A model generated the notes under the pieces. It was not told the DNA's origin, did not search any database, and saw nothing but the letters and a program-made list of their open reading frames with translations. A DNA stretch of 64,000 nt. It comes from Minisyncoccota bacterium. GTDB taxonomy: Bacteria; Patescibacteriota; Minisyncoccia; Phycocordibacterales; UBA2100. The stretch is from the NCBI GenBank assembly GCA_035559235.1, contig DATMBM010000004.1:4684-68683 (forward strand), read 5' to 3'. Shown one piece after another: positions 6,971 through 61,494 of this stretch. The position numbers and the translations under genes are program-made. The first letter of the stretch is position 1. Every line of letters begins with the position of its first letter.

Positions 6971-6979
6971 TGCTATGAT
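6971..6979 (+). promoter_or_regulatory. Extended -10 box TGcTATGAT, 6 nt upstream of the dnaG ATG. Proposed leaderless promoter.
   Basis: TG-n-TATGAT sits at 6971-6979 and the ATG at 6986. No Shine-Dalgarno lies between them. Confidence 0.4.
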
Positions 6980-6985
6980 GCGCCT

Positions 6986-8752
6986 ATGGCCGACACCGTC
7001 CAACAGATCAAAGACCGGCTCAGCATCGTCGATGTGGTCGGGCAATACTGCAAACTGCAGCGTGCGGGGCAGAATTACCGCGCGCTATGCCCCTTTCATG
7101 CCGAGCGGACGCCGTCCTTCATCGTCTCGCCGGACAGGGGCACCTACCACTGCTTCGGCTGCGGTGCGCACGGCGACATCTTCTCGTTTATCGAAGCAAT
7201 CGAAGGCGTTGATTTTAAAGGCGCGATGAAAATGCTGGCGGAGCGCGCGGGCGTGCCGCTCGTCTTCTCTGGGCGCGAGAAAAGGGAAGACACCGACCGT
7301 CTGTTCGAAGCGATGGAAACCGCGGCGTTGTTCTACCAATCGAAACTAACCGACGAAGCAAAAAAATACTTAAAAGAACGCGGGCTCAGGGAAGAAACCA
7401 TCCGTGCATTCAGGCTCGGGTGGGCATCCGATGCGTGGAGCGATGCGTCAGACCATCTACGGCGGAAAAAATTCACGAACAAAGAAATCGTGGACGCGGG
7501 ACTCGCAAAAAAACCCGCCTCGACTCGCGATCTGTCTCGTCAAGGCGAAGCCGTGGCGGACGGTTCGTCGACGCGAGGCGGGGGAGAAAAGGCAAGCCTC
7601 ACCGACAAGTTCCGCAATCGCATCATGTTTCCGATTTTCGATACTGCGGGGCGCGTCGTGGCGTTTTCCGGCCGCACGTTCGGCGAGAAAGCGCATCCGG
7701 ACGCGCCGAAATATCTCAATTCGCCGGAGACGGCGCTCTATCATAAATCGCGCATACTCTACGGCTTTGATCGCGCGAAACAGAGTATCCGCAAGCACAA
7801 TTTCGCCGTCCTTGTCGAAGGCCAGATGGACTTAGTGATGAGCCACCAAGCGGGGTGGTCAAACACGGTCGCCGTCTCCGGAACCGCCTTTACGCCCGAG
7901 CACGCCGCGCTCCTGAAGCGGATGAGCGAAAACCTGGTGATCGCGCTCGATCCCGACGAGGCTGGCTTCAAGGCGGCATCGCGCGCCGCGCGCGCCGCGC
8001 TGCAGCAGGGCATGAACGTAAAGGTTGCGCAGCTGCCAAAGGGCCTCGACCCGGCCGATTTGATCGTCAAAGAAGGGGCAGAGGCGTGGCGCGCCGCGAT
8101 CCGTGGCGCCAAAGACATCATCACGTTCCTCCTGGATGTGCTGCAGGAAAACGCGAAGACCGCCGACCAATTCCGTCGTTCCGTCGAGTCGATCGTGCTT
8201 CCGTTCCTCGCCGACGTGCAGAGCCCGATCGCGCGCGAGCAATACCAGAAAGAGATTGCGAAGCGTCTCGGCGTCTCCGAATCGGCCGTGGAAAAAACGA
8301 CCACCACCATACAGAAGTCGTTGACCTACCATGTGGTCCCTCGCAAAGAAGCTCGTCCGGCTGACGCGCCAAACCGCATCAAGCAGGCATACGGGCTGTT
8401 GTTGTGGCAGGAGACATTGCAGAAACCGATGATCGATACCGATGTCTTTGCCCGTGAATTGGAAGGCGCGATCGGAAAGGAGCATATGGACGAGCTGCGA
8501 CGTCTACCGCTTGATGACAAGGAAACCCTGCGGTTCTTCGCGGAGCAATTGCATGGGCGGAACTCGTCGCTTCAGCAATCCGCAAAGACGCTCCTCGCGG
8601 TGCTGCGCCGCGACAAGCTCCAGACAGAATTACAGGAAACGACGGCGGCGCTGCGCGCCGCCGAGGCTCGGGAAGATATGGGGGAGATCGAACGTCTCTC
8701 AGAAGAGGCGCGTACGCTGACCACCGTCATTGCGCAATTAACGGAAAAATGA
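6986..8752 (+). CDS. dnaG: DNA primase DnaG
   Basis: CHC2 zinc finger (CPFHAERTPSFIVSPDRGTYHCFGCGAHGD) and TOPRIM motif (VLVEGQMDLV). 588 aa. Confidence 0.9.
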   Translation: MADTVQQIKDRLSIVDVVGQYCKLQRAGQNYRALCPFHAERTPSFIVSPDRGTYHCFGCGAHGDIFSFIEAIEGVDFKGAMKMLAERAGVPLVFSGREKREDTDRLFEAMETAALFYQSKLTDEAKKYLKERGLREETIRAFRLGWASDAWSDASDHLRRKKFTNKEIVDAGLAKKPASTRDLSRQGEAVADGSSTRGGGEKASLTDKFRNRIMFPIFDTAGRVVAFSGRTFGEKAHPDAPKYLNSPETALYHKSRILYGFDRAKQSIRKHNFAVLVEGQMDLVMSHQAGWSNTVAVSGTAFTPEHAALLKRMSENLVIALDPDEAGFKAASRAARAALQQGMNVKVAQLPKGLDPADLIVKEGAEAWRAAIRGAKDIITFLLDVLQENAKTADQFRRSVESIVLPFLADVQSPIAREQYQKEIAKRLGVSESAVEKTTTTIQKSLTYHVVPRKEARPADAPNRIKQAYGLLLWQETLQKPMIDTDVFARELEGAIGKEHMDELRRLPLDDKETLRFFAEQLHGRNSSLQQSAKTLLAVLRRDKLQTELQETTAALRAAEAREDMGEIERLSEEARTLTTVIAQLTEK

Positions 8753-8771
8753 TATATTTTCGGTGTTCAGA

Positions 8772-8796
8772 CAGCGCCTGAGATAGGCGGTGTTTT
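8772..8796 (+). terminator. Rho-independent terminator candidate downstream of dnaG
   Basis: CAGCGCCT-gagat-AGGCGGTG stem followed by TTTT. Confidence 0.4.
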
Positions 8797-8856
8797 CTAT
8801 ACCGTATTACTCTACGCTTCACAGCATTTTCACGTTAACTTCACAGGATAGCCACC

Positions 8857-10092
8857 ATGGTCAAAAAGAAAGCCAAAAAAGCAAAGTCGAAACGGAAGGC
8901 GCGACCAGCGCGCGCTTCGCGCGCGTCTGAACGTTCGGCGAAGCGCGGCGCAAAGAAAGTAAAGGCGCAGAAGGCGCCGAAAAGGGCAGTGCGCCAGAGC
9001 GCCGGCTCCGCGCAGGCAAAGAAAGACCAGAAGGTTGAGTCGTTGATCACACTCGGCCGCGAGCGCGGCTACGTCACGTATGACGAGATCATGCGCGAGT
9101 TCCCGCACATCGAGGATGACGTGCTGCTCCTTGAGGAGATGTACGAGCGCTTCGGCGCCGCAGGCATCGACGTCCTCGAAGGCGGCAACATACTCGAAGA
9201 TACCTCCGCGCAGGACATTTTAGAGAAGAAGAAGCTGCAGCACCGTCGCGCCGACAGCGCCTACGATTCCGTGCAGATGTACCTGCGCGAAATTGGCCAG
9301 TACCCGCTTTTGACGGCCGCGCAGGAGCGCGAGCTTGCGAAGCGTATCGGCGAAGGCGACGAAGAGGCGCGCTCGATTCTGGCGCGCTCCAACCTCCGCC
9401 TGGTGGTCTCGATCGCGAAAAAGTACGTCAATCGCAGCCCGGATTTGACGCTCCTCGACCTCATTCAGGAGGGGAACCTCGGCCTCTTCAAGGCTGTCGA
9501 CAAGTTCGACTTCACCAAGGGCTTCAAATTCTCGACCTATGCGACCTGGTGGATCCGCCAGGCGATTACGCGCGCGCTTGCAGACCAATCGCGCACCATC
9601 CGCATCCCGGTGCACATGGTGGAAACCATCGCGAAGTACAAGCAAAAAGTGCGCGAGCTCTCACAGCACCTTGGCCGTGACCCGCTGCCCGAAGAAATCG
9701 CGGCAGAAATGGGCATCGAAGTGGAAAAGATTTACACCATCCAGAAGATTAACCAGGATACCGTCTCGTTGGAATCACCGGTCGGCGATGATGACGACGA
9801 ACGCTCAACCCTTGGCTCGTTCATTGCCGACGAGACGATCGCCGCGCCCGACCAGGACGCGTCGCGCCGCATCCTTTCCGAGCAAATGGGAGCCATCCTC
9901 GACGAATTGTCCCCGAAAGAGCGCAAAATCCTCGAAATGCGCAACGGCCTGACCGAAGACGGCATTTGCTACACATTGGAAGAAGTCGGTCGTGAATTCG
10001 GCGTCACGCGCGAACGCATCCGTCAGATTGAAGCAAAGGCGCTGGAGCGCATTAGGTTCCACGAGCGAGCAAAGCAGTTGAAATCGTACTAG
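8857..10092 (+). CDS. rpoD: RNA polymerase sigma-70 factor RpoD with a Lys/Ala-rich N-terminal tail
   Basis: Region 1.2/2 ([23 protein letters not shown]) and region 2.2-2.4 ([40 protein letters not shown]) motifs, plus a region 4 helix-turn-helix. Lies in a dnaG-rpoD operon. Confidence 0.9.
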
Positions 10093-11862: not shown

Positions 11863-11961
11863 CTCTAAGCACCTAAGAACAGGTACCGTCGGCCATCCTA
11901 CGCCTCTTTACGCCTCATTTCAAGCGCCGCATTCGGCCTTTGACTGCGCGGAGAAATACGC

Positions 11962-11967
11962 TATAGT
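11962..11967 (+). promoter_or_regulatory. -10 box TATAGT, 8 nt upstream of the ATG at 11976. Proposed leaderless promoter.
   Basis: The sequence reads gcTATAGTcatccaccATG. Confidence 0.35.
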
Positions 11968-11975
11968 CATCCACC

Positions 11976-13052
11976 ATGTGTGCAAAAAACGGCTCATACA
12001 CGGGCGATTTGAGGGAATTCATTTTGAATAGGAATGAGGAGCAGTCAGCGGCGTTTCGCTCGGCAGCTGCGCGTCTTGCGCGGACACGGTATCGTGCCGA
12101 GCATCCGACCGAAATTGCGGCGTGGAAATGCATGGACGGGCGTTTGAATCTTGCGGTATATACGAAGACACCACCCGGCATTATCCAGCCATTCCGCAAC
12201 ATCGGTGGCAAATTCGACCTTGGGTGGCCTTTTTTTCAGGAGACCATAAAGGGCTGGGCGAATTATTCGCTGCATCGCGGGCGTCGGTGTTTGATTCTCG
12301 TCACCTATCACTTTTCGAAAGGTGACCATCATCGCGGCTGCGCCGGCTGGAAATATGACACCGGTGCGGCGCACGCTGCGGCAAAAAAACTGGCCGAGCA
12401 GACCGAAGGCGTCTTCGGCAAAACACCGCGCATGGTGTATCCGGTCGTCGTCGGCGTCGAAACCGACGAAGAAGGGCTCGTCGTGCATGGGGCAAATGGG
12501 GATTCGATTGATATGGAAGCGCTCGGCTCGTTGGAAGGCCTCGAAGAAAAGATCCGAGATATGTTCCCCGACATGGATCTCCAGATGGCACAGGATTTCC
12601 TTCCGCTTCTGAAAGGCAACTGGGAACATATCCGCGATATTCGTGCGGAAAACCGGCCGCCGATCGATTTGGAACATCGCGAACAGATCATTGCAGTCGG
12701 CCGTGGATTCGATTGGCTGCATTTGCCGAATAAGGCGCTTATCATTGGCCCCTATTCGCACGAATGGCCCTCAGCGGTCGCGACAGCAGGGAAGATCATC
12801 TTGGGTAATTTGAATGACGGACGCGTCCCAAAGGAAGAAGGTGTGCTGCTTCTTCTCTCATCACTTTCGCGCGATGAGGAGGGAAGTTTTGGATGGAACA
12901 TGGCGATTGAAAAGGCCAAATACCTCGAACGAGTCTCGAAGGACATTCTGCTCGAACAGGTGCCGGAATTGAAGGATTCGTTGCAGGTTTTTGCCGGTGT
13001 TACGTTTGCCGATACAAGAAAGCTGCATCCGCTCGGTGATTCACACGCATAA
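11976..13052 (+). CDS. Beta-class carbonic-anhydrase-like protein with a C-terminal extension of about 150 aa
   Basis: CxDxR motif (WKCMDGR) followed by PFRNIGGKF (compare FVxRNxGN), then HHRGCAG (HxxCG) about 60 residues later. This is the zinc-ligand spacing of beta-carbonic anhydrases. Total length is 358 aa. Confidence 0.45.
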   Translation: MCAKNGSYTGDLREFILNRNEEQSAAFRSAAARLARTRYRAEHPTEIAAWKCMDGRLNLAVYTKTPPGIIQPFRNIGGKFDLGWPFFQETIKGWANYSLHRGRRCLILVTYHFSKGDHHRGCAGWKYDTGAAHAAAKKLAEQTEGVFGKTPRMVYPVVVGVETDEEGLVVHGANGDSIDMEALGSLEGLEEKIRDMFPDMDLQMAQDFLPLLKGNWEHIRDIRAENRPPIDLEHREQIIAVGRGFDWLHLPNKALIIGPYSHEWPSAVATAGKIILGNLNDGRVPKEEGVLLLLSSLSRDEEGSFGWNMAIEKAKYLERVSKDILLEQVPELKDSLQVFAGVTFADTRKLHPLGDSHA

Positions 13053-13102: not shown

Positions 13103-13345
13103 TCACAGTCTGATGCGATCTGCTTTGAGCGCGCGCGCGTACTCAACTGGGCACAGCTTGATGTCGGCCGTGCGCGCATGATTCCGGACGAAATAGAAAA
13201 TGGAACGCGCCTCATCATGGCTGCCCCTGACGGGCGCCGGACTCATTTCCTTAGTTGCTCGTGATCGGATCTCGTTGAAATCGGCATGCGTGACCTCATC
13301 CTGGAGACGTCCTACAAAAACGTCGATTTCGCGAGGGTCGTCCAT
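13103..13345 (-). CDS. Hypothetical small protein
   Basis: The ORF runs to 13441. I prefer the internal start MDDPREID… at 13345 because it has a GGAGG Shine-Dalgarno 6 nt upstream. The longer form would overlap the leaderless promoter of the opposite gene. Confidence 0.35.
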   Translation of the reverse strand: MDDPREIDVFVGRLQDEVTHADFNEIRSRATKEMSPAPVRGSHDEARSIFYFVRNHARTADIKLCPVEYARALKADRIRL

Positions 13346-13415
13346 GTAATGCCTCCATTGTCGGAATTGGACTGTAAAAAAATATACTCCTTCATCGCGT
13401 CTAAAACAAGTGTGT

Positions 13416-13424
13416 TGATATACT
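13416..13424 (+). promoter_or_regulatory. Extended -10 box TGaTATACT, 6 nt upstream of the ATG at 13431. Proposed leaderless promoter.
   Basis: The sequence reads gtgtTGaTATACTggcgaaATG. Confidence 0.4.
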
Positions 13425-13430
13425 GGCGAA

Positions 13431-14360
13431 ATGGCCCGCACGGTAAAAGAAGTGAACGATATGCCGCCCTTGGAGGCCTATAAGCCATTTGAGGGCGATG
13501 AGGCCGCAATTGAAGAGCGCCTGTGGCCGTTCGAGGAGGTCGAGCCCGAGGCGAAAATACCGATTTCGCACTGGAGCCATTCATCGCTTATGGCGTACCT
13601 CCGCAACCCGCTTGCCTGGTACAAGCGGTATGTCGAGCGCGTCTACGACATGCCAGTTACCCCCTCGTCGGTCGTCGGTCGTGCGGGACACGTAGCACTA
13701 CAGCATTTTTATAGCGGCATCCCGAAAGAAGGCGCGATCGACCTCGGGCTTGAATATTTGCGCGGCGTGCCCGATTTCGAGATCAACTTCGGCGTCGCGA
13801 AGACGAAGAAGGCGAAAAAAGAGAAGCGTCTCGGCATGGAGCGGGAATACCTGCAGGCAATCAATTTCTATCTTGCCAAGCCGCCGAAATACGACGTTGT
13901 CGATGTTGAAATCAAGGCGACGGCAACCGTAAAGGGCCTGGCGCTTCCGATCAAGGCCGTTTCCGACCTCGTCGTGCGATCAAAGGTGGACAAAAAGGCC
14001 CTTGATGTCGTCGACCATAAATTCGTCGAGTCGTTTTCGAAACACGGGAAAAACAAGACGCTTTTCGTGATGCAGGCGCTGTTCAATTACTACACGGTCA
14101 CCGAAACGTATCGGCAACCTGTGCGACGATTTATCCTGCACGAGTGCAAGAAGACGAAGAACAAAGACGGCTCATCGCAACTGAAGCGCTACGTAATCGA
14201 ATACGAAAAATGCGCGCGCGAATTCGAGCTGTTCAGACAGCTGGTCAACGATGCGACGGACGATCTCGCAAGACGAAAAGTGTTCCTCCCGAACCCCTCC
14301 GACATGTTTGAGGGTGAGAACTCGTTTGATATTTATCGGTTGGGGCTGGCGAGCGACTAG
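13431..14360 (+). CDS. PD-(D/E)xK (RecB/Cas4-like) nuclease-fold protein without the C-terminal 4-Cys cluster
   Basis: N-terminal HWSHSSLMAYLRNPLAWYKRYV resembles the RecB-family nuclease motif I region. D…D/E-x-K candidates are AVSDLVV…DVVDHKF. Only two Cys residues are present. Confidence 0.5.
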   Translation: MARTVKEVNDMPPLEAYKPFEGDEAAIEERLWPFEEVEPEAKIPISHWSHSSLMAYLRNPLAWYKRYVERVYDMPVTPSSVVGRAGHVALQHFYSGIPKEGAIDLGLEYLRGVPDFEINFGVAKTKKAKKEKRLGMEREYLQAINFYLAKPPKYDVVDVEIKATATVKGLALPIKAVSDLVVRSKVDKKALDVVDHKFVESFSKHGKNKTLFVMQALFNYYTVTETYRQPVRRFILHECKKTKNKDGSSQLKRYVIEYEKCAREFELFRQLVNDATDDLARRKVFLPNPSDMFEGENSFDIYRLGLASD

Positions 14361-15127
14361 AGAAGAGAATCAATCAATCCCTTCACCATGTCGTAGGGTT
14401 GTGCGCCTTCGAGCGGGATCTGCTCACCATCGACGATAAGGACCGAGTGCGGGGTGCCTTGACCACCCGCGGCAACGGCTTCTGCGGCATCTGCATCGAC
14501 GCGCGCCTTGTGCTTCCCGCTAGCGACACATGCCTCGAACTGCGCGACATTGAGCCCAAGCTCCTGCGCAAAGTCAGAAAGCTGGCCGGCGTCGGTAGAC
14601 GAGCGCGGTTCTCGTTCCGTGTACCGCGGCTTCCCGTCTTGTCCCACCGGAATCGTCTCCGGCGTGTTGTAAACGCCGATATCGAGCGAGTTGTTGGCAT
14701 TTGTCCGCTCGTAGAGCATATCGGTAAATTTCCAGAACATTTCATTGCCTCCTTGTTCGGCAGCGCATTCCAGTGCCTCAGCCTGCTTCGGCGCCTTCGG
14801 GTGGAGCGAGGGAATCGGGAAGTGTCGATAGACCCACGCGACATCCCCTGAAGCCCCGTATTCGGAGATGATGCGGTTCATTGTCGTATGGAATTGTTTG
14901 CAGAACGGGCATTCGGTGTCGGAAAATTCAACGACTACGATTTTGGCGTTCGGATTGCCCTTGATGTGGTCATCCTGTTGCACGGTGCGGATTTCTTCCT
15001 GGACGGTCGGCTGGATACCGTTATTCGCCGCGACGGGGCGCGAATTGACGAGGTAGAGCGAGACAGCGATCATTGCGCCCGCGATGATAATCGAGATGGG
15101 TACGGCCATTTTTTGGAGAAATTCCAT
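14357..15127 (-). CDS. DsbA-family thiol:disulfide oxidoreductase, membrane-anchored
   Basis: N-terminal TM helix and a thioredoxin fold with CPFC active site (FSDTECPFCKQFH). Confidence 0.8.
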   Translation of the reverse strand: MEFLQKMAVPISIIIAGAMIAVSLYLVNSRPVAANNGIQPTVQEEIRTVQQDDHIKGNPNAKIVVVEFSDTECPFCKQFHTTMNRIISEYGASGDVAWVYRHFPIPSLHPKAPKQAEALECAAEQGGNEMFWKFTDMLYERTNANNSLDIGVYNTPETIPVGQDGKPRYTEREPRSSTDAGQLSDFAQELGLNVAQFEACVASGKHKARVDADAAEAVAAGGQGTPHSVLIVDGEQIPLEGAQPYDMVKGLIDSLL

Positions 15128-15170
15128 AGGTTCGTTGTTAGGGTAACGGGAGGATTATAGCATGCTTCAT

Positions 15171-15485: not shown

Positions 15486-16061
15486 TTAAAACCCCAGCGT
15501 TTTCGTGAGTGACGCTGCCGATGAAGGTGCAAGCCACTGCGAAGTATCCAATTTCACCTCCTTTTTGATACCCAATTCCTTGAAGTGGAGTGAGCCGTTT
15601 TTGAGGGCGTAGTCGAAAATGCCTTTGGTAACCTCGACGTCCTTGAGGCAGTATTCGCGCAACTTTTTGATTTCGCCTTCCTTCCACCACTTCATCGCTT
15701 GCAGGCCGTTTGCAATCTTTTTCTTGCCCAGCGTGCCCTCAGCGATCGCGTCGAGACGCACGCGCCGGCCGAGCACGGCGGAAATTTCTTTCAGAAGGTC
15801 GATCGAGCGAATTTTGGACAAATCGCCGGGATAATATTTGTTGAGAACCGGAATGTCAAAATGGTCAGAATTGAATCCGACCAAGACATCGGTATGCTCC
15901 AAAACCTTCCACAGCTTCGGCAGCTCTTCTTTCAAAAACGAATCGTATGAATCCGTCTCGGAATCGTGGATGCAACAGATCGTCAGTTCCAGATCTTCCG
16001 GCTTCCAGTTCCCGCGGGACACGTCGCCGTAGGTCTCAATATCAAGCGTAACGACACGCAT
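15486..16061 (-). CDS. DEDDy-type 3'-5' exonuclease (DnaQ/PolB-exonuclease-like, RNase H fold)
   Basis: Exo I motif VVTLDIETYG, Exo II motif FNSDHFDIPVL and Exo III motif YCLKDVEVT. An extended -10 box TGtTATAAT (16070-16078, minus strand) sits 8 nt upstream of the ATG. Confidence 0.7.
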   Translation of the reverse strand: MRVVTLDIETYGDVSRGNWKPEDLELTICCIHDSETDSYDSFLKEELPKLWKVLEHTDVLVGFNSDHFDIPVLNKYYPGDLSKIRSIDLLKEISAVLGRRVRLDAIAEGTLGKKKIANGLQAMKWWKEGEIKKLREYCLKDVEVTKGIFDYALKNGSLHFKELGIKKEVKLDTSQWLAPSSAASLTKTLGF

Positions 16062-16090
16062 GAGTGGCGATTATAACAAACCAACACGCG

Positions 16091-18783: not shown

Positions 18784-18867
18784 GAAGAGAGTATACCGCG
18801 GGATAGCCGCAGGAATACGACACGGATTTGTGGTTGTGGGAATAGTGTGATACTTACTATCATTGCT

Positions 18868-19317
18868 ATGCGCACCGACGACTTGCAAATCTATCCCCGC
18901 TTTGAAGTACGGGAGGGACGCCCCGGCACCGGTCTTGGGCTGTTTGCCAAAATTCCTTTCCAGAAGGGCGACTTTTTACTTGAATACACGGGGAAGAAAA
19001 TCCCGACGGTCGTTGCGGATGAAAGCGACAGCGAGTACCTGTTTGAAATAAACGCAGACTGGACGATCGACGGACCGCCGGAAATCAATCTTGCCGGCTA
19101 CATCAACCATGATTGTCATCCGAACACTGAATCAGACATCGTGGACGGAAGAATCATCATCGAGGCGATACGCGACATCGCTGCGGGGGAGGAGCTGACG
19201 ATCGACTACGGCAATGAATATTTTGACGAATTCATCAGGCCGAAGGGATGCAAGTGTGCGTCGTGTGAACGCGGGCTGCCATCGCCGCATTATGCAAATC
19301 GCGCTCAAGCGGACTAG
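18868..19317 (+). CDS. SET-domain protein (putative protein-lysine methyltransferase)
   Basis: SET signature motifs GLGLFA, NHDCHPN and ELTIDYG, plus a Cys-rich post-SET region (CKCASCERG). A TACTAT hexamer lies 7 nt upstream of the ATG. Confidence 0.7.
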   Translation: MRTDDLQIYPRFEVREGRPGTGLGLFAKIPFQKGDFLLEYTGKKIPTVVADESDSEYLFEINADWTIDGPPEINLAGYINHDCHPNTESDIVDGRIIIEAIRDIAAGEELTIDYGNEYFDEFIRPKGCKCASCERGLPSPHYANRAQAD

Positions 19318-19835
19318 CGGATAAGCGTGTCAACAAACGATCCTAGCGCGTACGCGATTGCCGCTGCGACCCCGCCAACAAGGAGCATTTCAAGTCCCGC
19401 GACAAACGCGTTCTTTTTTATCACGAGGGAGCGTGCTGAACCCACGACGAAGAACGCTGCTGCCGTAGCAATGGATGAGACGACGAAAGCATTCTCTGCT
19501 GCCGCGGGGACGAAAAAGGGGATGAGCGGCAGCGCGCCGGCGATGACAAACGAAACAAAGGTGACGACGCCGTCGGCAAATGGATTGCGATCGTGAGCTT
19601 CCGAGCCTTGTGCCGCGACGGCCTGTTCCGAGCGCATGGAAAGATATGCTGACGCGCCCATGGAAAAGCCGTCGGCGACGAGATTTGCGATCCCAAGAAT
19701 GATAATGATGGTCGCGCTTACACCAGCGCCTGCAGCCGCGGCAACAACGGCAAACGTCGTGATGATCCCGTCGTTGGCGCCATAGACGATGTCGCCGATG
19801 TAGTACGCGAGACGCGAGCGAGCGGTTCGTGGCAT
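19314..19835 (-). CDS. VIT1/CCC1-family Fe/Mn transporter (small form)
   Basis: GANDG motif (YGANDGIITTF) and multiple TM helices. An extended -10 box TGcTAGACT (19842-19850) sits 6 nt upstream of the ATG. Confidence 0.7.
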   Translation of the reverse strand: MPRTARSRLAYYIGDIVYGANDGIITTFAVVAAAAGAGVSATIIIILGIANLVADGFSMGASAYLSMRSEQAVAAQGSEAHDRNPFADGVVTFVSFVIAGALPLIPFFVPAAAENAFVVSSIATAAAFFVVGSARSLVIKKNAFVAGLEMLLVGGVAAAIAYALGSFVDTLIR

Positions 19836-19856
19836 GGTGGCAGTCTAGCATATGCG

Positions 19857-19865
19857 TGCTATACT
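19857..19865 (+). promoter_or_regulatory. Extended -10 box TGcTATACT, 7 nt upstream of the ATG at 19873. It is divergent from a TAGACT box that serves the minus-strand VIT gene.
   Basis: The sequence reads gcgTGcTATACTttcgcgcATG. Confidence 0.4.
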
Positions 19866-19872
19866 TTCGCGC

Positions 19873-20253
19873 ATGAAAGGACGCGGCGTCACCATTTTTT
19901 GGATCGTTATCGGTGTATTAATCGTCGGAGGGTTTGCGGTCTCAGCGTACATGCGCACGTTGCCCGGCGAGTACGACGGGCTTGCGCAATGTTTGAAAGA
20001 CAAGGGCGCCGTGTTTTATGGCGCGTTTTGGTGCCCGCACTGCCAAACGCAAAAGCAAATGTTCGGCCGCTCGGCCGACCTTCTGCCGTACGTGGAGTGT
20101 TCAAATCCTGACGGACAGTCGCAAACGCAAGTGTGCATCGACAAAGGCGTCCAGCAGTATCCGACATGGGAATTTGCGGACGGCTCGCGTCTGACGGGCG
20201 AGCAAGAGCCTGCGGCGCTTGCCGAAAAAGCAGGATGCGCGCTTCCTGAATAG
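19873..20253 (+). CDS. Membrane-anchored thioredoxin-like protein with a CPHC active site (BdbD/DsbA-like partner of DsbB)
   Basis: N-terminal TM helix and the motif FYGAFWCPHCQTQKQMF. Start chosen at the second ATG on promoter-spacing grounds. Confidence 0.65.
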   Translation: MKGRGVTIFWIVIGVLIVGGFAVSAYMRTLPGEYDGLAQCLKDKGAVFYGAFWCPHCQTQKQMFGRSADLLPYVECSNPDGQSQTQVCIDKGVQQYPTWEFADGSRLTGEQEPAALAEKAGCALPE

Positions 20254-21310: not shown

Positions 21311-21326
21311 GGGGCGAGTATAGCAT

Positions 21327-41936: not shown

Positions 41937-41987
41937 CAGGGCATTGTACCGCGGCGTCTGCGCAGAATTTTTGACTTGCTTTGAGGA

Positions 41988-44224: not shown

Positions 44225-44233
44225 TGCTATAAT
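44225..44233 (+). promoter_or_regulatory. Extended -10 box TGcTATAAT, 6 nt upstream of the GTG start at 44240
   Basis: The sequence reads tttGcTATAATattgagGTG. Confidence 0.35.
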
Positions 44234-44239
44234 ATTGAG

Positions 44240-45566: not shown

Positions 45567-45610
45567 AGCTCTGTATTGTATGACAGCTCGGGCACGGGTA
45601 CAATGACGGT

Positions 45611-48017: not shown

Positions 48018-48294
48018 ACGTAGAGGCCATGATAGCACAAACAACTCGTTTGCAAATTTGACAACATTTACATTTTGACGCGCCTTGTTCATGGCTGTCT
48101 GCTCGTCGGGTGGCAGCGGCGCGGCTTCGCACCGAACACGGAGTGAGCGGACGCGCGAACGTCACATCTATGGCCAAAATGTCTCGCAGCCCCATTATTT
48201 GCTGCGCAATGTTCTCTCGAAGTCGCGCCGCTGCTGGTCTTCTCCGGTTCGTGTTCGGAGTGAAGCAGCGCCTCGCAATGTCGCGAGCGGAGAT

Positions 48295-49929: not shown

Positions 49930-50255
49930 TAGCGTGCGATCGGGGTCGAGTCGCCGAGGCCGGATGAGCGGCCCGAACCGGTTTGCTGGCTGGCAGCGGT
50001 CGTATCGCGCTGCGGGCGGCCCTTCGGAGCAACTTCGGCAATTTTGCCTTCTTTGACGAGGTCGCGGTACACTTCGCGGCGCGCAATGCGCTTGAGCGCC
50101 TGCTTTTTCGAAACCGTCTTTGATTTTCCGCGCTCGAAATAGCGTCCCTTGCGGACAGTCTGAATGAGGCCCGTGCCCTGCACGCGGCGGGAGAATTTGC
50201 GGATCACCGAAAGCGTGCTCTCGGTACCACTCTTCGTCACTTCAGCATTAATCAT
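49929..50255 (-). CDS. rpsU: 30S ribosomal protein bS21 with a C-terminal extension
   Basis: The pattern LSVIRKFSRRV…GRYFERGKSK…ALKRIARRE parallels bS21. Confidence 0.7.
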   Translation of the reverse strand: MINAEVTKSGTESTLSVIRKFSRRVQGTGLIQTVRKGRYFERGKSKTVSKKQALKRIARREVYRDLVKEGKIAEVAPKGRPQRDTTAASQQTGSGRSSGLGDSTPIAR

Positions 50256-50304
50256 GTGGAGGGGATACTACCACAACGGGAGCACAGAGGCAAGCGAGAG
50301 GGAA

Positions 50305-51489: not shown

Positions 51490-52140
51490 TTATTCCGCCA
51501 CGTAAGTGGCGTCGCCCGGAAAGAGGCCGATGACATCGATGGGAAAGAGGCGGACCAGCACTTGTCCGATGATATTTTCTTTCGGCAACGCGCCCCACAC
51601 GCGCGAATCGCTCGACACCTTGCGGTTGTCTCCGAGTACGAAATATTCTCCTTCGCCAAGCGTTACTTCCATGCCGGTTGGGCCGCCAATGTTTGTGTCG
51701 GCGACGTACGGCTCCTCAAGGACGAAGCCATTTGGGTTTTCCGCGTTCGTGATGCGTATTTGCCCGCCCTCCACTGCAATCGTTTCCCCCGGCAAACCAA
51801 TGACGCGTTTTATGAGCGTCCGCGGACCGCGCCATTCTTGTTGCGCAATGCGCTTCCACAGCGAGCATTCACCCGTATTCGGTAGGCAAAACACGATGAC
51901 ATCGCCCCGCTCCGGCGCCGAGAAGTCGTAGGAAAGGCGATCGGTGATCAGATAATCCCAATTATCAAATGTTGGCTCCATCGAGGCGCCGGAAACGACG
52001 TAGGGCGCCGCGACGAAGAAGCGGATGAAAAGCGCGAGGCCGAGCGCGAGCGTCACATACCATGCGAATCCGCCTGAACGCGCGTCTCTCGCACTGGAGT
52101 GATCCGATGATTGAGACGGTGTCATCACAGGATCAGTCAT
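51490..52140 (-). CDS. lepB: Signal peptidase I
   Basis: Catalytic Ser motif GASMEPTF and the GDNRKVSSDSRVWG box. Start chosen at ATG 52140, which has a TATACT box (52150-52155, minus strand) 9 nt upstream and a TTGTGT -35 hexamer 16 nt further upstream. Confidence 0.8.
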   Translation of the reverse strand: MTDPVMTPSQSSDHSSARDARSGGFAWYVTLALGLALFIRFFVAAPYVVSGASMEPTFDNWDYLITDRLSYDFSAPERGDVIVFCLPNTGECSLWKRIAQQEWRGPRTLIKRVIGLPGETIAVEGGQIRITNAENPNGFVLEEPYVADTNIGGPTGMEVTLGEGEYFVLGDNRKVSSDSRVWGALPKENIIGQVLVRLFPIDVIGLFPGDATYVAE

Positions 52141-52261
52141 GCGGGAGTCAGTATAACGCAAACGAACGTTGACACAAAGTATTTCAAGTGTTGGATGTGC
52201 ATAAATTCATGTTTTCATGTAGCATGAATAGCGCGTTCATCCTCTATACGCTATTCAATAT

Positions 52262-55375: not shown

Positions 55376-56497
55376 CTACTTATTTCCCGCAAACGAGAGC
55401 GTCATCCGTCGTTCCTTCGGTTCGAACAATTTGATGACAAACGGATACACTTTGCCGAGCTCTAATTTCGATCGAAGCTCCGCCTCGTCTTTGAATTCGG
55501 AGATATGCACCAATCCGGCAACCCCCTCCTCGATAGAAGCAAGCGCGCCATGCTTGTTGTACTTGATGACGACCGCGTCCACCGTCTGATCTTTCTTGTA
55601 TTTCGAAGCGGCCGCCTTCCACGGATCATCAGTGAGCGCCTTGATGGAGAGGGAAACCTTGTCATCCTTGATCTCGATGACTTTCACCTTGACGGTTTCC
55701 CCGACCTTGTAGCGGGTTTTCGGATTTTCAACCAGTGCCCAGTCCATTTCGGAGATGTGCACAAGGCCTTCAAGCCCTTCCTCCAACTTCACAAAGACGC
55801 CGAATTCAGTCGCGCCGGTCACGACGCCTTCGACGACATCGCCGACATGGTATTTCTCGACAAGAGATGAGCGCTCAGATGGACCCGCGCCCTTTTCGGA
55901 GAGGATGAGTTTCTGCTCTTTCGGATTTGCCGTAATGATCTGCACCTCCAGCTTTTCCCCGACAAGTTTCTTGAGCTCGACAAAGATTTTCTCTTTGTCG
56001 CCGTCAGGAACGCGCGGATAGTGTGCCGGCGCGAGCTGCGATGCCGGCAAGAAGCCGGAAATGCCCTGCCAATTGATGATGAGGCCACCCTTGTTCGCGT
56101 CGGCAACCGGGAGTTCGAAGACCGTCTTCTTCTGCATTGCCTGCTCGGCTTCATTCCAGATGAGCGCCTGCCGTGCCTCGCGCAGCGACAATTCGATGTA
56201 TCCTTCTTTCTTTTCGGTGCCGACGACTTTCGCGGTGATGATGTCGCCAACGTTCGTGTTCTTCAAAGTCTCGCGGGCAGAGAGGTATTCGCGGCCATAA
56301 ATGATGCCGGTTCCAAAAGGATGCAAATCGACAAACACACGCGCGCGACCAATCGCAACGACCGGCCCTTCGACCACGTCGTCGAGTGCCGGCGGCTTCG
56401 GCGTCGATTCAAAGAGCGCCTCCATCGGGCCCTCTTTCTTGATAACCTCATCCTTCTCGTCGACGTCCTTTTCGACGTCAGCTGTTGCTGTTGGCAT
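55376..56497 (-). CDS. rpsA: 30S ribosomal protein S1 (four S1 domains)
   Basis: Repeated S1 OB-fold units (GxV…G.FV…GL.H.SE pattern, four times). Confidence 0.85.
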   Translation of the reverse strand: MPTATADVEKDVDEKDEVIKKEGPMEALFESTPKPPALDDVVEGPVVAIGRARVFVDLHPFGTGIIYGREYLSARETLKNTNVGDIITAKVVGTEKKEGYIELSLREARQALIWNEAEQAMQKKTVFELPVADANKGGLIINWQGISGFLPASQLAPAHYPRVPDGDKEKIFVELKKLVGEKLEVQIITANPKEQKLILSEKGAGPSERSSLVEKYHVGDVVEGVVTGATEFGVFVKLEEGLEGLVHISEMDWALVENPKTRYKVGETVKVKVIEIKDDKVSLSIKALTDDPWKAAASKYKKDQTVDAVVIKYNKHGALASIEEGVAGLVHISEFKDEAELRSKLELGKVYPFVIKLFEPKERRMTLSFAGNK

Positions 56498-56634: not shown

Positions 56635-56881
56635 CCAGGACCATCGCTTCGCAGCCGTTGCCGGCTCCACTAGGTCCTTATGAAAGTAAGGACTGGGTTG
56701 GTGGGTTGGAACCAGCCCTCACATGAGGAGGGTGTTTGGTGGCTACCTCCTGTCCAGCTAGAGATACGATACTAACTTGAATATGATCTCTTGTCAAGGA
56801 ATGGCAACTACACTATGGATTAAAATATGGCTTAAAACAACCACGATAGCGCCCTTTGCAGCGGATGCTATAATTATGGTC

Positions 56882-57502
56882 ATGATTTTGACTTACCACG
56901 ACGGCTTTTGTATCCGCGCGAGTGCGGGGGATACCACGATTGTTTTTGGGCCCGTCTCGAAGCAGTCGAAAAAATTCAAGCCGACGAATTTCGGCGCCGA
57001 CGTCGCGCTTATTTCACTCAACCATCCTGATATGAACGGCGCCGAAGAGGCCGGGCGTGGCGAGAAGCAACCCTTTGTGGTCACGGGACCGGGCGAGTAC
57101 GAAATAAAAGACATCGCGGCGTTCGGATTCGGCTCGACGTCAAAATATGGGGGACATGAGCGCATTAATACCGTGTACTCGGTGACTTTCGACGGCCTCA
57201 CGATCATGTATCTCGGTGCCGTAGGGACGACCGTATTGCCAAAAGATATCGAGGATATGGATCCGCCGGACGTCTTAGTCGTTCCGGTGGGCAATGAGGG
57301 GGCGCTCACGGCGGCTGAAGCGCACAAGCTTGCGGTAAACCTGGAGGCGAAGATCGTCATTCCGGTCGGCTACGACGAGAAAACACTTAAGCAATTTTTG
57401 AAGGAAGCGGGTGCGGAGGGCGTGAAAGCGGAAGAAAAGCTGACGATAAAAAAGAAGGATGTAGCAGGGAAGGAGAATGAGGTGGTGGTGTTAAAGGCTT
57501 AG
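56882..57502 (+). CDS. MBL-fold metallo-hydrolase (UPF0173-like)
   Basis: MILTYHDGFCIRASAGDTTIVFGP…VVPVGNEG resembles the Zn-dependent beta-lactamase-fold hydrolase family. A TATAAT box at 56869-56874 lies 7 nt upstream of this ATG. An in-frame ATG at 56876 is an alternative start. Confidence 0.6.
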   Translation: MILTYHDGFCIRASAGDTTIVFGPVSKQSKKFKPTNFGADVALISLNHPDMNGAEEAGRGEKQPFVVTGPGEYEIKDIAAFGFGSTSKYGGHERINTVYSVTFDGLTIMYLGAVGTTVLPKDIEDMDPPDVLVVPVGNEGALTAAEAHKLAVNLEAKIVIPVGYDEKTLKQFLKEAGAEGVKAEEKLTIKKKDVAGKENEVVVLKA

Positions 57503-57628: not shown

Positions 57629-57637
57629 TGTTATAAT
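57629..57637 (+). promoter_or_regulatory. Extended -10 box TGtTATAAT, 8 nt upstream of the ATG at 57646
   Basis: The sequence reads cTGtTATAATggagggatATG. Confidence 0.4.
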
Positions 57638-57645
57638 GGAGGGAT

Positions 57646-58017
57646 ATGGTTGTGGGGAAAGCAATCGAAAATCTCAAGGACAAACCACATGAGGAGAAGA
57701 AGGTTGTGGCTGGCGGTATCGCAATCGCGGTTGTCATCATCCTGCTCGTCGGGTGGGGATTTTTCTTTTTGCGCAGCATCCAGCGGGGAAGCGCCGTCCC
57801 GACACTTCAAGGCGCGGCGGTTCCTGAGGATCAATTGGACACGCAATTCCTGCAGCAGACGCAGCAGCAGCTGCAGCAGTACTACCAGACATCGCAGCAG
57901 CAACTGCGGAAAATCCGCGACACATCGGGAGGCGGCAGCGTCAATGTCGACGTTGGATCCGGCGCGTCTCCAAACGGCGGAAGCGGCGGATTTGGGGCTC
58001 AAAATAACGGTTTTTAG
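57646..58017 (+). CDS. Hypothetical membrane-anchored Gln-rich protein
   Basis: TM helix (GGIAIAVVIILLVGWGFFFL), then a Q-rich segment (QQTQQQLQQYYQTSQQQL) and a Gly-rich tail. Confidence 0.45.
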   Translation: MVVGKAIENLKDKPHEEKKVVAGGIAIAVVIILLVGWGFFFLRSIQRGSAVPTLQGAAVPEDQLDTQFLQQTQQQLQQYYQTSQQQLRKIRDTSGGGSVNVDVGSGASPNGGSGGFGAQNNGF

Positions 58018-58049: not shown

Positions 58050-58058
58050 TGATATACT
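58050..58058 (+). promoter_or_regulatory. Extended -10 box TGaTATACT, 8 nt upstream of the gyrA ATG
   Basis: The sequence reads tcTGaTATACTgatcctatATG. Confidence 0.4.
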
Positions 58059-58066
58059 GATCCTAT

Positions 58067-60553
58067 ATGGCACGAGGCCAAAAAGGCGATGGGAACGACG
58101 CAGGGGCGGGAACACGGACGCCCCTTCGCATTGTGCCTCGCTCGATCACGACTGAAATGCGCGAGTCGTATCTTGACTATGCGATGTCGGTCATTACTGC
58201 CCGCGCGCTTCCTGATGTGCGCGACGGCCTGAAGCCGGTGCACCGGCGCATCCTCTACGCGATGCAGGAAATTGGGCTCACTGCGAGCGCAAAGACGAGA
58301 AAAAGCGCGACCGTTGTCGGAGAAGTGCTTGGTAAGTACCACCCGCACGGCGATGTGGCCGTGTACGACTCGATGGTAAAAATGGCGCAGGATTTCACGA
58401 TGCGCTATCCCCTTATCGTCGGCCAGGGAAATTTCGGCTCTATTGACGGCGACAACCCCGCGGCGATGCGCTACACGGAGGTGAAAATGTCCCGTCTCGC
58501 CGGTGAGATGCTGAAAGACATCGAAAAGGACACGGTACATTTCCGTCCGAACTACGACAATACGAAGAAGGAACCGGTCGTCCTGCCGGCGGCAGCACCG
58601 AATCTCCTTTTAAACGGTACGTTGGGCATTGCGGTCGGCATGGCGTCCAACATCCCGCCGCACAATTTGCGCGAAGTATGCGACGCCACCGTGCACCTAA
58701 TTGAAAATCCGGACGCGACGACGGACGATTTGATGCAATTCGTCCAGGGTCCTGATTTTCCGACGGGCTGCATTGCGTTCAACCAGAAGGACATCGCGCA
58801 CGCGTATGCGACGGGACGCGGCGGCGTTGTCGTGCGCGGCGAAGCGGAGATCACGGAAAACAAAAAAGGTGACTACCAGATCGTCATCACGTCGATCCCG
58901 TATCGCGTCAACAAATCCGACCTTCTGCAAAAGATCGGTGCGCTCGTGCACGAGAAAAAGCTCGAGGGCATCCGCGATGCGCGCGACGAGAGCACGAAAG
59001 ACATCCGCATCGTGATCGAACTCAAGCAAAACGCGAACCCGCAGACGGTTTTGAATTATCTCTACAAGCACACGCAGCTCGAAGAGACCTTCCACTACAA
59101 CATCGTGGCGCTCGTCGACGGCGTCCCGCAGACGCTATCGCTAAAGGCGATCATCGAGGCCTTCGTTTCGCATCGTAAGGAAGTGGTGACGCGACGCACG
59201 ACATTTGACCTTTCGCGCGCGAAAGAGCGCGAGCACATCCTCCTTGGCCTTTCCAAAGCGCTCGATCACATCGACGCGATCATCCAACTCATCAAGAAGT
59301 CGAAGGACGTCGATGATGCCCGTAAGGGACTCATGACGAAATTCAAATTCTCGGAAATTCAGGCGAACGCGATCCTCGACATGCGTTTGCAGAAGCTCTC
59401 CGGTCTCGAGCGCAAGAAGATCGAGGACGAGCTGGAGCAGGTGCAGGCGCTCATTGCGGAACTCGAATCGCTCCTGAAAAGCGAGAAGAAGATGATGGAC
59501 GTCATCAAGAAAGAAGTGAAAGAGCTGGGTGAAAAATACGGGGACGACCGGCGCACAAAGATCATGAAGCGCGGCGCGCAGATACTCTCGGCCGAAGATT
59601 TGATCGCGGACGATGAATTCGCGCTTGTCCTGACGCAGGGCGGCTACATCAAGCGCACGAATCCGGCCGAATACCGCCGGCAGCGCCGCGGAGGCGTTGG
59701 TGTTGTTGATCTGGATACGAAGGAGGAGGATTTCGTGACGCACCTGCTTACCGCAAGCGCGCACTCCGACATTCTCTTTTTCACCGACCGCGGCAAGGCG
59801 TACCAGATAAAGATGTACGAGCTTCCGGAGGGCCGGCGCGCGACGAAGGGCAAATCGATCATGAATTTCCTTTCAATCGAGCAGGGCGAGCGCATCACTT
59901 CGATCCTTGCGATGCCGAAGGACGTTAAATCAACCAACGGGCTTTCGCTCCTGCTTGCGACAAAGAATGGCACCGTCAAGAAGACATCGGCCGACAAGTT
60001 CAAAGAGGTCCGCCGCTCCGGATTGATCGCCATTTCGCTCGATAGGGGGGACGCGCTCATTTCCGCGAGCTTCGTCCGAAAAGGCGATACCGTTTTCTTG
60101 GTGACGACGAAGGGGCAGTCGATCCGATTCGATGAAAAAGACGTGCGTGAAATGGGGCGGCAGGCGGGCGGCGTGCGCGGCATCAAATTGCAGTCAGGAG
60201 ACAGCGTCGTAGGCGCGGGTGTCGCAGAAAAAGGTGGCGCGGAAGAGCTCTTGATCCTCTCGCAGCTCGGTTACGGGAAGAAGACGCCGATCAAGGAATA
60301 CAAGGTGCAGGGTCGCGGCGGAAGCGGCATTAAAACAAGCGCCGTCACAGCGAAAACCGGGCCGGTGATCGCGGGACTCATCGTCAGCGAGCACGGCGAA
60401 TTGATTTGCATGTCACAAAAGAGCCAAGTGATCCGCACTGATTTGAAAGAAATCCGCACCAGCGGGCGGCAGACCCAGGGCGTGCGCGTCATGGCGCTGC
60501 GAAGCGGCGACAAAATCGCGGCGTGCGTGGTGCTGGAAGGGAAGGAGGTTTGA
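58067..60553 (+). CDS. gyrA: DNA gyrase subunit A
   Basis: Active-site region AAMRYTE and the N-terminal motif [21 protein letters not shown]. The C-terminal beta-pinwheel repeats are present. 828 aa. Confidence 0.9.
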
Positions 60554-60563
60554 CAAATAGCGC

Positions 60564-60785
60564 GTGAGTAGTATAACTTCTTTTGTTCGCGTTGGTCTTT
60601 ACACCCTGCTAATAGATAGGAGGAAGGGAATGATGGACCGTATTCTTAATAGGCTGACAAAAACCGACCGATCAGGCGCACTCGTCGGGTACGCTGTTTT
60701 TTTCGTCGGCTTCCCGGTTGTGATAGCGATTTTGGTCGCCGGCAACTGGGTTTATGTACGGATTGCGCCGCTTATCGGTCCCTGA
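60564..60785 (+). CDS. Hypothetical small membrane protein
   Basis: GYAVFFVGFPVVIAILVAGNWVYV hydrophobic core. The internal Met MMDRIL is a possible start. Confidence 0.3.
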   Translation: MSSITSFVRVGLYTLLIDRRKGMMDRILNRLTKTDRSGALVGYAVFFVGFPVVIAILVAGNWVYVRIAPLIGP

Positions 60786-60799
60786 ACTCGACACCTATC

Positions 60800-60837
60800 C
60801 ACGCCCGCGGCAACGTCCGCGGGCGTGAGTCTTTTTG
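60800..60837 (+). terminator. Rho-independent terminator
   Basis: CACGCCCGCGG-caacgt-CCGCGGGCGTG followed by agtCTTTTTG. Confidence 0.6.
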
Positions 60838-60855
60838 CACGATATACTTATTCAC

Positions 60856-61494
60856 ATGTCACACGTGCGAGAGGGACGCGCGCATGTCTCGTCCGGCGCG
60901 AGCCGAGGCGGGGCGGCTTTTGCGCATCCGCCACGAAATATCAAGGCGCTCGGCATCGAGCCTGCGATGAAAATTGCGGATTTCGGCGCCGGGAGCGGTG
61001 CGTACGTCATCGCGATTGCGGAGCACTTGGAAAACAGCGGTCGCGTGTACGCCGTTGACATTCAGAAAGACCTACTGCGGAGGATTCACACGGAGGCAGT
61101 TAAGCGCGGATTCAAGAATGTCGAAATCGTGTGGGGCGACCTTGAGATGCCCGAGGGTTCGAAAATTGCAGACGCATCGCTTGATCTGGTGCTCATTTCA
61201 AATCTATTGTTCCAGGTTGAAGACAAGCAGGCCGTTATCGAAGAAGGAAAACGCGTGATCAAGCCGGGAGGCCGCCTTGCCATTATCGATTGGTCGGAGA
61301 GTTTCGGCGGCATGGGTCCTATCAAGACAGCGGTCGTCACGAAAGAAGAAGTGCTTGCGCTGGCGCGGGAAAGTAGCCTTGTGTTCCAAAAAGAATTCCG
61401 TGCTGGCGCGCATCATTATGGACTGGTCTTTCGCAAAGAAGCGGGGCGGCGCGCTATCGGTGTGCAATCCAAGCGGGTTACAATGCGACCATGA
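60856..61494 (+). CDS. Class I SAM-dependent methyltransferase
   Basis: Motif I IADFGAGSGAYV and the post-I acidic residue (VYAVDI). A TATACT box at 60843-60848 lies 7 nt upstream of this ATG. Confidence 0.65.
   Translation: MSHVREGRAHVSSGASRGGAAFAHPPRNIKALGIEPAMKIADFGAGSGAYVIAIAEHLENSGRVYAVDIQKDLLRRIHTEAVKRGFKNVEIVWGDLEMPEGSKIADASLDLVLISNLLFQVEDKQAVIEEGKRVIKPGGRLAIIDWSESFGGMGPIKTAVVTKEEVLALARESSLVFQKEFRAGAHHYGLVFRKEAGRRAIGVQSKRVTMRP

Follow-up and report, generated by a model that had tools for sequence, protein, structure and literature searches.

Extended -10 boxes directly before start codons suggest leaderless transcription in a Kaiserbacteria-like member of the Paceibacteria

Background

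A 64,000-nt stretch of contig DATMBM010000004.1 from a Minisyncoccota bacterium (GenBank assembly GCA_035559235.1, positions 4,684 to 68,683 of the forward strand; hereafter the window) raises the question of where its transcripts begin. Hexamers of the form TAnnnT, often preceded by TGn, lie a few nucleotides before many start codons, and a preliminary description of this DNA read them as extended -10 promoter boxes, with leaderless transcription as the default. With a probability of roughly 85%, most transcription units indeed begin at, or 1–5 nt before, the start codon. Every test applied to the sequence, on the promoter character of the motif, its conservation in orthologs and the rarity of Shine-Dalgarno (SD) sites, agrees with transcripts that would begin at or near the start codon, as the preliminary description had proposed.

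The window has ~57% GC and is placed by its protein sequences in a Kaiserbacteria-like member of the Paceibacteria (Parcubacteria, candidate phyla radiation (CPR)/Patescibacteria), the nearest relatives of its conserved proteins being metagenome-assembled genomes (MAGs) of Kaiserbacteria/Paceibacterota. GyrA (58067-60553) is 74–85% identical to proteins from MAGs of Candidatus Kaiserbacteria/Paceibacterota and 67–71% identical to those of other Parcubacteria.

Materials and methods

The gap was defined as the number of nucleotides between the last T of the box and the first base of the start codon. Enrichment was tested on the longest-ORF (first) start only of 50 non-overlapping open reading frames (ORFs) of at least 150 aa, which avoids picking starts by the motif; an earlier test on every ATG opening an ORF of at least 100 aa was noisy from internal ATGs, and longest-ORF starts were used instead. 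Boxes were scored with a position-weight score and called at the null 99th percentile of that score within gaps of 5–11 nt, in a table of 53 curated genes.

Related contigs numbered 160 in total and comprised gyrA-neighbourhood loci (the 31 closest and 49 more distant Paceibacteria) and independent rpoB-neighbourhood contigs from metagenomes. Orthologs were compared by synteny around gyrA in the closest relatives (L001-L031), and conservation is given as the number of close orthologs with a box at gap 6–9. For the motif itself, the window and its 31 closest relatives supplied 123 sites, which were aligned on the required T-A-N3-T and compared with TAnnnT occurrences in coding regions as control.

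Position and enrichment of the box

The motif, its spacing and enrichment, its promoter-type information content, its conservation in orthologs and the scarcity of SD sites are direct observations. All 20 hexamers which the preliminary description had placed 6–9 nt before start codons were found at their coordinates (Table 1). The gap is 6 nt at 10 of the 20 (6986, 13431, 29542, 30580, 44240, 19835, 21310, 22973, 39667 and 40008), 7 nt at 18868, 19873, 56882 and 60856, 8 nt at 11976, 57646, 58067 and 16061, and 9 nt at 35812 and 52140. The general form TAnnnT held except at 29542, where the box is GATAAT; the box at 18868 is present but weak (score 3.4 at gap 7), and the statement that no SD sequence lies between box and start held except at 57646, where the spacer before the ATG contains GGAGGG. 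About 10 start-proximal boxes absent from the earlier list were also detected, before 23231, 31760, 33481, 36684, 41936, 42953, 45566, 48017, 50255 and 61491.

At the longest-ORF starts, TAnnnT occurred at gap 6–9 in 17 of 50 cases, where ~2.4–2.8 would be expected from other offsets or from shuffles; the other offsets (gaps 10–44) held ~0.6 each (Poisson P ~9e-10). A shuffle control, which the preliminary description had itself proposed as a challenge, gave 2.8 +/- 1.6 in shuffled upstream regions, and 0 of 5000 shuffles reached 17. The longer form TGnTAnnnT had 8 occurrences at a gap of 6 or 8 nt and a single one across all remaining offsets. When 50 kb of Escherichia coli K-12 were run through the identical script, the SD peak appeared at 19/37 starts and the box at 2/37, against 4/50 and 17/50, respectively, in the window. 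The gap distribution had its mode at exactly 6 nt in every data set, and a second mode at 8–9 nt.

Across 49 bacteria, transcription start sites (TSS) cluster around a point 7 bp past the -10 box (PMC12641261), so that a 6-nt gap would place +1 on the A of the ATG. It is possible, if rather doubtful, that the promoters are real and the transcripts carry short leaders (1–5 nt or more), with a 5' end that is not the start codon itself. The second gap mode, the 8–10 nt kept by gyrA orthologs and the 11 nt of ftsZ speak for such leaders. Set against them are the gap of exactly 6 nt at half of the listed sites and as the mode everywhere, the literature convention by which a leader of up to 5 nt still counts as leaderless, and the absence of an SD site from all of them except 57646.

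Start-codon assignment

Several starts are supported by the proteins themselves. Pfam domains open at the following first residue/profile position: FMN_red 1/1, Lactamase_B_3 3/2, DnaG zinc ribbon 3/4, LepA GTPase 4/2 and Pth 5/2; these five starts therefore cannot lie further downstream. The preliminary description had also used the box to choose starts over the longest ORF at five positions, and three of these choices (56882, 52140 and 60856) are backed by the present data. The start at 56882 lies 35 codons inside the longest ORF, its Pfam domain begins at residue 3, and its orthologs open with MILT.HEG at the same residue. Orthologs of lepB (52140) open with MTDPVM and keep the arrangement TTGTGTCAA-N-TAGAAT-N6-8-ATG, in which TTGTGTCAA is a conserved -35 element; gyrA orthologs share the N-terminus MAR.K at the same Met. 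At 41936 (DUF817) the longest ORF would encode 329 aa, but the box points to a 266-aa protein, and the full DUF817 profile fits this shorter form. The box probably corrects the starts at 41936, 45566 and 48017 as well.

As start codons are predictions, the true starts could in principle lie downstream, which would turn the boxes into ordinary promoters of leadered mRNAs. We consider this very improbable and rejected it, on the Pfam domains that open at residues 1–5 in several proteins, on the ortholog N-termini (MILT.HEG, MTDPVM and MAR.K) at the same Met and on the enrichment, which persists with blind longest-ORF starts.

Promoter character of the motif

In the aligned sites, T-15 was found in 52% (18% in the control), G-14 in 62% (32%), T-10 in 50%, A-9 in 63% (18%) and A-8 in 54%, and a weak TTG was seen at -35 to -33. 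The sites thus show the features of a sigma-70 extended -10 promoter, namely TGn before TAnnnT, information at -12, -11 and -7, and a weak -35. Recognisable and properly spaced -35 elements occur in lepB and gyrA orthologs (TTGTGTCAA and TTGACTGG). The same motif precedes the non-coding RNase P RNA gene by 6 nt, and tRNA-Glu has TATATT 23 nt upstream. The -10, TGn and -35 elements are read by RpoD, which the window encodes as a full-length housekeeping sigma factor. On these features the motif is best taken as a sigma-70 extended -10 promoter and not as a ribosome-binding site.

The opposite view would make TGnTAnnnT a non-SD ribosome-binding signal on the mRNA, read, for example, by bS1 or by a 16S 3' tail that has diverged so as to pair with UGCUAUAAU, as in the GeneMarkS-2 group B genomes. 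The motif does sit at an SD-like distance from the start, and some Parcubacteria are reported to lack the anti-SD (PMC9297842). Such a signal would not be expected 6 nt before a non-coding RNA, nor to carry the classical promoter features TG at -15/-14, T-12, A-11 and T-7, with a -35 TTG kept in lepB and gyrA orthologs. Motifs of group B, moreover, stand before every gene (PMC6028130), but the coupled genes inside operons lack the present one, and so do rpsA and ybeY. This view was rejected on the RNase P RNA box, the promoter features and the absence from coupled genes, and we give it even less credence than a general misplacement of starts.

Conservation in related genomes

The box is retained before many orthologs. 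It was found in ~25/27 close orthologs of gyrA, as TGnTAnAAT mostly 8–10 nt before the ATG, in 22/28 orthologs of the MBL hydrolase (56882), 6–8 nt before the same Met, in 25/28 of the methyltransferase (60856), 14/17 of the bS21-like gene, 15/18 of pth and 7/8 close orthologs of ftsZ. Lower counts were obtained for lepB (9/15) and the 123-aa protein gene at 57646 (9/18), and conservation was weak for the solute-binding protein gene at 61491 (5/27 close orthologs). Genes without a box in the window gave no such signal: no box was found in 16 orthologs of ybeY or 22 of rpsA, and the 6/23 orthologs of 63178 are at control level (~7 expected). MBL-hydrolase orthologs without a box (in L001, L003, L020 and L022) show a repeat of CTAGAAGCT or CTACAAGCT immediately ahead of the ATG, which is a different upstream architecture.

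Beyond single genes, TAnnnT at gap 6–9 was counted in 109/387 cases in the 31 closest gyrA loci (background ~6 per offset, no SD signal) and in 132/536 in the 49 more distant Paceibacteria gyrA loci (background ~17 per offset, weak SD peak). The rpoB-neighbourhood contigs gave 25/126 when close (background ~1.6 per offset) and 96/347 when distant (background ~9 per offset), with no SD signal in either. An effect of chance or of the composition of AT-richer intergenic DNA (AT content is 48% in the 40 nt before starts and 43% in the window) is next to negligible and was rejected, since the enrichment is offset-specific and replicates in the 160 related contigs, no shuffle of those upstream regions (0 of 5000) matched it, and the same script does not find it in E. 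coli.

Gene classes and Shine-Dalgarno sites

A start-proximal box was called in 28/53 curated genes, to which the GATAAT at 29542 is added; the starts are ATG except for three GTG. About 28–29 of 54 genes are accordingly predicted to be leaderless, that is ~52% of all genes and ~60% of those that are not coupled to an upstream gene. The word "default" in the preliminary description is thus apt for roughly this share and does not extend to every gene. Some 8 genes (17347, 20260, 28875, 41134, 49929, 51486, 62789 and 63178) start -4 to +18 nt from the upstream stop; they have neither a box nor a good SD and are therefore presumably translationally coupled.

That canonical SD sites are confined to a minority of genes holds in substance, with 4–6 SD-like sites in the 53-gene table and no positional peak of GGAG/GAGG in the window, L001-L031 or L082-L161. 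Among the SD sites named earlier, 13345 (GGAGG, gap 6) and 40467 (GAGGAGG, gap 6) are canonical, while 20260 (gap 3) and 28875 (gap 14) are poorly spaced; two further SD-like sites were seen at 35489 (AAGGAG, gap 8) and 11835 (GAGG, gap 6). The small ORFs at 13345, 35489 and 40467 show the textbook order of promoter, 30–45 nt leader, GGAGG-type SD, 6–8 nt and ATG.

The dsbA-like gene (15127), trxB (46726), ftsA and rpsA are leadered without an SD. In the 26-nt leader of the dsbA-like gene the perfect TGCTATAAT is followed by CCTCCC, which is anti-SD-like rather than SD-like. The long A-rich leader of the bS1 gene (rpsA) may be a distinct, perhaps autoregulated, initiation region.

Proposed mechanism and its weak points

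From these observations we infer the actual TSS and the mode of ribosome loading as follows. The sigma-70 holoenzyme would recognise an extended -10 promoter with the consensus TGnTAtAaT and only a weak TTG as -35. Initiation would take place ~7 nt past the box, on the A of the ATG at a 6-nt gap and with a 1–5 nt leader at gaps of 7–11 nt. The 5'-terminal AUG (rarely GUG) would then be translated without SD pairing, by leaderless initiation. The promoters often occupy the final codons of the preceding gene, as at 21310, 33481, 39667 and 61491, or stand directly behind its terminator, and many genes would therefore have a promoter of their own. Genes without a box, which mostly start -4 to +10 nt from an upstream stop, would presumably be translated by coupling or re-initiation. 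A few small genes would retain the classical order of promoter, leader and GGAGG, and a few others (trxB, ftsA, the dsbA-like gene and rpsA) would be leadered without an SD. For lepA, whose box is weak, the murJ stop lies 11 nt before the start, which makes translational coupling an alternative.

Several points weigh against this account. Leaderless status is predicted here from the DNA alone. Half of the boxes lie 8–11 nt from the start (in gyrA orthologs mostly 8–10), and many transcripts may have leaders of 1–5 nt rather than none. The box helped to choose some of the starts among the 53 curated genes, although the unbiased test is independent of them, and ~12 genes fall outside all three simple classes. 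No 16S gene was found in the window or the 160 related loci, and the three canonical GGAGG sites may hint that the anti-SD is still present. A generic two-hexamer (-35/-10) sigma-70 scan was not enriched (10 vs 9.2 in shuffles); it is therefore the extended -10 box, with its position, that carries the promoter call, and the unenriched scan fits promoters which rely on the TGn extension and have weak -35 boxes.

Table 1. Boxes, start codons and associated features in the window. The layout is given 5' to 3' on the coding strand, with the gap in nt before the start codon; the score is the position-weight score of the box.
Feature	Start	Coordinates	Strand	Layout	Score	Remarks
rpoD		8857-10092	+			full-length group-1 housekeeping sigma-70; regions 1.1, 1.2, 2, 3, 4
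dnaG	6986	6971..6988	+	TGcTATGAT, 6 nt, ATG	10.6	Pfam zinc ribbon from residue 3
358-aa protein gene	11976	11959..11978	+	TATAGT, 8 nt, ATG	7.4	
80-aa ORF	13345	13343..13356	-	GGAGG, 6 nt, ATG		minority class; promoter ~35 nt upstream
PD-(D/E)XK nuclease gene	13431	13416..13433	+	TGaTATACT, 6 nt, ATG	12.4	
DsbA-like gene	15127	15125..15162	-	TGCTATAAT, 26 nt, ATG	13.0	score at gap 26; leadered, no SD
3'-5' exonuclease-like gene	16061	16059..16078	-	TGtTATAAT, 8 nt, ATG	12.2	
SET-domain gene	18868	18852..18870	+	TACTAT, 7 nt, ATG	3.4	weak; TATCAT at gap 4 scores 7.8
VIT1 gene	19835	19833..19850	-	TGcTAGACT, 6 nt, ATG	9.6	
Thioredoxin-like gene	19873	19857..19875	+	TGcTATACT, 7 nt, ATG	11.7	divergent from the 19835 gene
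FMN reductase gene	21310	21308..21325	-	TGcTATACT, 6 nt, ATG	11.7	box directly after upstream stop codon
FAD-linked oxidase gene	22973	22971..22988	-	TATACT, 6 nt, ATG	10.0	
350-aa ORF	23231	23213..23233	+	TATATT, 9 nt, GTG	8.5	tentative start
CAP-domain gene	29542	29527..29544	+	TGcGATAAT, 6 nt, ATG	6.0	non-TA box
SNase gene	30580	30565..30582	+	TACAAT, 6 nt, ATG	10.1	
murJ	31760	31743..31762	+	TACTAT, 8 nt, ATG	7.3	
lepA	33481	33464..33483	+	TAGGAT, 8 nt, ATG	3.7	weak, within murJ 3' end; GTP_EFTU from residue 4
73-aa ORF	35489	35487..35502	-	AAGGAG, 8 nt, ATG		minority class; TATATT promoter ~45 nt upstream
divIC-like gene	35812	35794..35814	+	TAGAAT, 9 nt, ATG	8.8	
RNase P RNA gene		36200-36507	+	TGgTATAGT (36185-36193), 6 nt, 5' end		non-coding gene, same motif
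TPR protein gene	36684	36667..36686	+	TGgTATTCT, 8 nt, ATG	9.5	
HhH-GPD glycosylase gene	39667	39665..39682	-	TGcTACACT, 6 nt, GTG	10.0	
107-aa ORF	40008	40006..40023	-	TGcTAGCAT, 6 nt, ATG	7.3	
Small ORF at 40467	40467	40465..40512	-	TGaTATAGT, ~30 nt leader, GAGGAGG, 6 nt, ATG		minority class
DUF817 gene	41936	41934..41951	-	TACAAT, 6 nt, ATG	9.3	
268-aa protein gene	42953	42936..42955	+	TGcTATGCT, 8 nt, ATG	9.3	
Gene at 44240	44240	44225..44242	+	TGcTATAAT, 6 nt, GTG	13.0	TTGATA -35 at 16-nt spacing
DUF1801 gene	45566	45564..45583	-	TACAAT, 8 nt, ATG	8.8	
ftsZ	48017	48015..48037	-	TGcTATCAT, 11 nt, ATG	9.5	implied leader ~5 nt
bS21-like gene	50255	50253..50273	-	TGgTAGTAT, 9 nt, ATG	8.6	
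lepB	52140	52138..52177	-	TTGTGT (-35), 16 nt, TATACT, 9 nt, ATG	9.1	
Short bS1 (rpsA)		55376..56497	-			373 aa, three S1 domains; no start-proximal -10, no SD
MBL-fold hydrolase gene	56882	56866..56884	+	TGcTATAAT, 7 nt, ATG	13.0	
123-aa conserved protein gene	57646	57629..57648	+	TGtTATAAT, 8 nt, ATG	12.2	8 nt contain GGAGGG
gyrA	58067	58050..58069	+	TGaTATACT, 8 nt, ATG	12.4	
Methyltransferase gene	60856	60800..60858	+	TATACT (60843-60848), 7 nt, ATG	10.6	behind gyrA terminator hairpin
Solute-binding protein gene	61491	61476..61493	+	TACAAT, 6 nt, ATG	8.2	promoter inside upstream gene, start overlaps its stop

Other features of the window

Genes identified by Pfam include dnaG, hisS, murJ, lepA, ftsA, ftsZ, ybeY, lepB, pth, gyrA and the bS21-like gene; two tRNAs and the RNase P RNA are also encoded. 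The divergent VIT1 and thioredoxin-like genes (19833-19875) are 37 nt apart, with -10 boxes back to back at 19842-19847 (minus strand) and 19860-19865 (plus strand), and the -35 region of each promoter therefore overlaps the start of the other gene. The terminator of gyrA is a strong hairpin (60800-60827, 11 bp stem and T run) followed without a break by the -10 box of the downstream gene, so that terminator and promoter share sequence. Terminator-like sites in the 44–64 kb part were enriched (39 vs 24 +/- 5.9 in shuffles). A perfect palindrome with a 9-bp stem (44012-44032) and T runs on both strands, just after tRNA-Ser (43913-44000), looks like a bidirectional terminator.

The rpoB and rpoC domains share one uninterrupted frame (1-6915), in which Rpb2 ends at about residue 1051 and Rpb1 begins at 1087, leaving a linker of ~35 aa. 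In 19 of 20 relatives rpoB is separate (stop after ~1055 aa, with rpoC beginning a few nt on), and only L158 is likewise fused (2289 aa); the single frame is either a genuine beta-beta' fusion or an assembly indel. Upstream of rpoB in this clade (L088 4793-9995 and other rpoB loci) lie smc, a kinase/pyrophosphorylase gene, rpsP, khpA and trmD, and the usual rplKAJL cluster, to which the uL1 gene rplA belongs, is not there.

Implications and comparison with known systems

If the predicted layout is correct, the -10 box pinpoints true starts in these abundant uncultured bacteria and corrects at least 56882, 52140 and 60856, which makes it useful in practice for annotating start codons in CPR genomes. 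The layout also points to genes which are mostly transcribed singly. It would add to the few bacterial lineages that rely mainly on leaderless initiation, and it bears on the ideas that leaderless translation is ancestral or tied to reduced ribosomes.

The promoter itself is an ordinary sigma-70 extended -10 (TGn) promoter, with TG at -15/-14, T-12, A-11, T-7, a weak -35 and sigma region 3 present; what is odd is that it keeps a fixed distance from the start codon. In the group B non-SD genomes of GeneMarkS-2 the motif precedes all genes; the motif of the window does not, and it is present before a non-coding RNA gene, which sets the window apart from that group. The group D archaea resemble it in having a leaderless first gene with overlapping or abutting stop-start pairs downstream, but their box lies ~26 nt upstream and is bound by TBP/TFB (PMC6028130), whereas the box described here is a bacterial -10.

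Closer in lineage is the subgroup of Parcubacteria that lacks the anti-SD and uL1. The CCTCCT anti-SD is present in only 48% of Parcubacteria 16S genes, and SD helices were inferred not to form (Tsurumaki et al. 2022, PMC9297842); that study is concerned with rRNA and ribosomal proteins, and neither leaderless mRNAs nor the placement of promoters comes up in it. These Parcubacteria belong to the same broad clade, and the absent SD peak of the window would be the mRNA-side counterpart of their loss, which the layout fits, although its three canonical GGAGG sites argue for caution. No paper that connects leaderless transcription to CPR, Patescibacteria or Parcubacteria turned up in full-text literature searches. 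We lean, with some reserve, towards a broader proposal, by which a whole clade within the CPR (Kaiserbacteria and neighbouring Paceibacteria) has largely given up SD initiation, most genes being individually transcribed leaderless from an extended -10 and the rest stop-start coupled. This would supply a functional explanation of anti-SD loss in part of the Parcubacteria and make the clade the first bacterial lineage beyond Actinobacteria and Deinococcus-Thermus in which a majority of genes is leaderless. It would also imply that standard gene callers mis-set many starts in its MAGs.

The nearest known architecture is GeneMarkS-2 group C, in which a Pribnow box lies 6–8 nt from the start of first genes in operons, as in Actinobacteria (Mycobacterium, Streptomyces) and Deinococcus-Thermus; the leaderless share is 167/262 mapped genes in D. 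deserti and a predicted ~40% of operons in M. tuberculosis (PMC6028130). The window shares with it a TAnnnT box ~6–10 nt before starts, a large leaderless share (above 25%, with 28–29/54 genes and 17/50 blind starts) and starts that are mostly AUG/GUG. It differs in lineage, here ultra-small CPR/Patescibacteria of ~57% GC, and in its prominent TGn extension. Unlike in group C, promoters are often embedded in the 3' end of the upstream gene, and whereas the remaining genes of group C carry an SD, only 4–6 SD-like sites occur here and genes that are not leaderless are mostly stop-start coupled. The window thus appears to present the known leaderless-dominant architecture of group C in a new lineage, with a loss of SD sites that seems sharper than in the classical examples.

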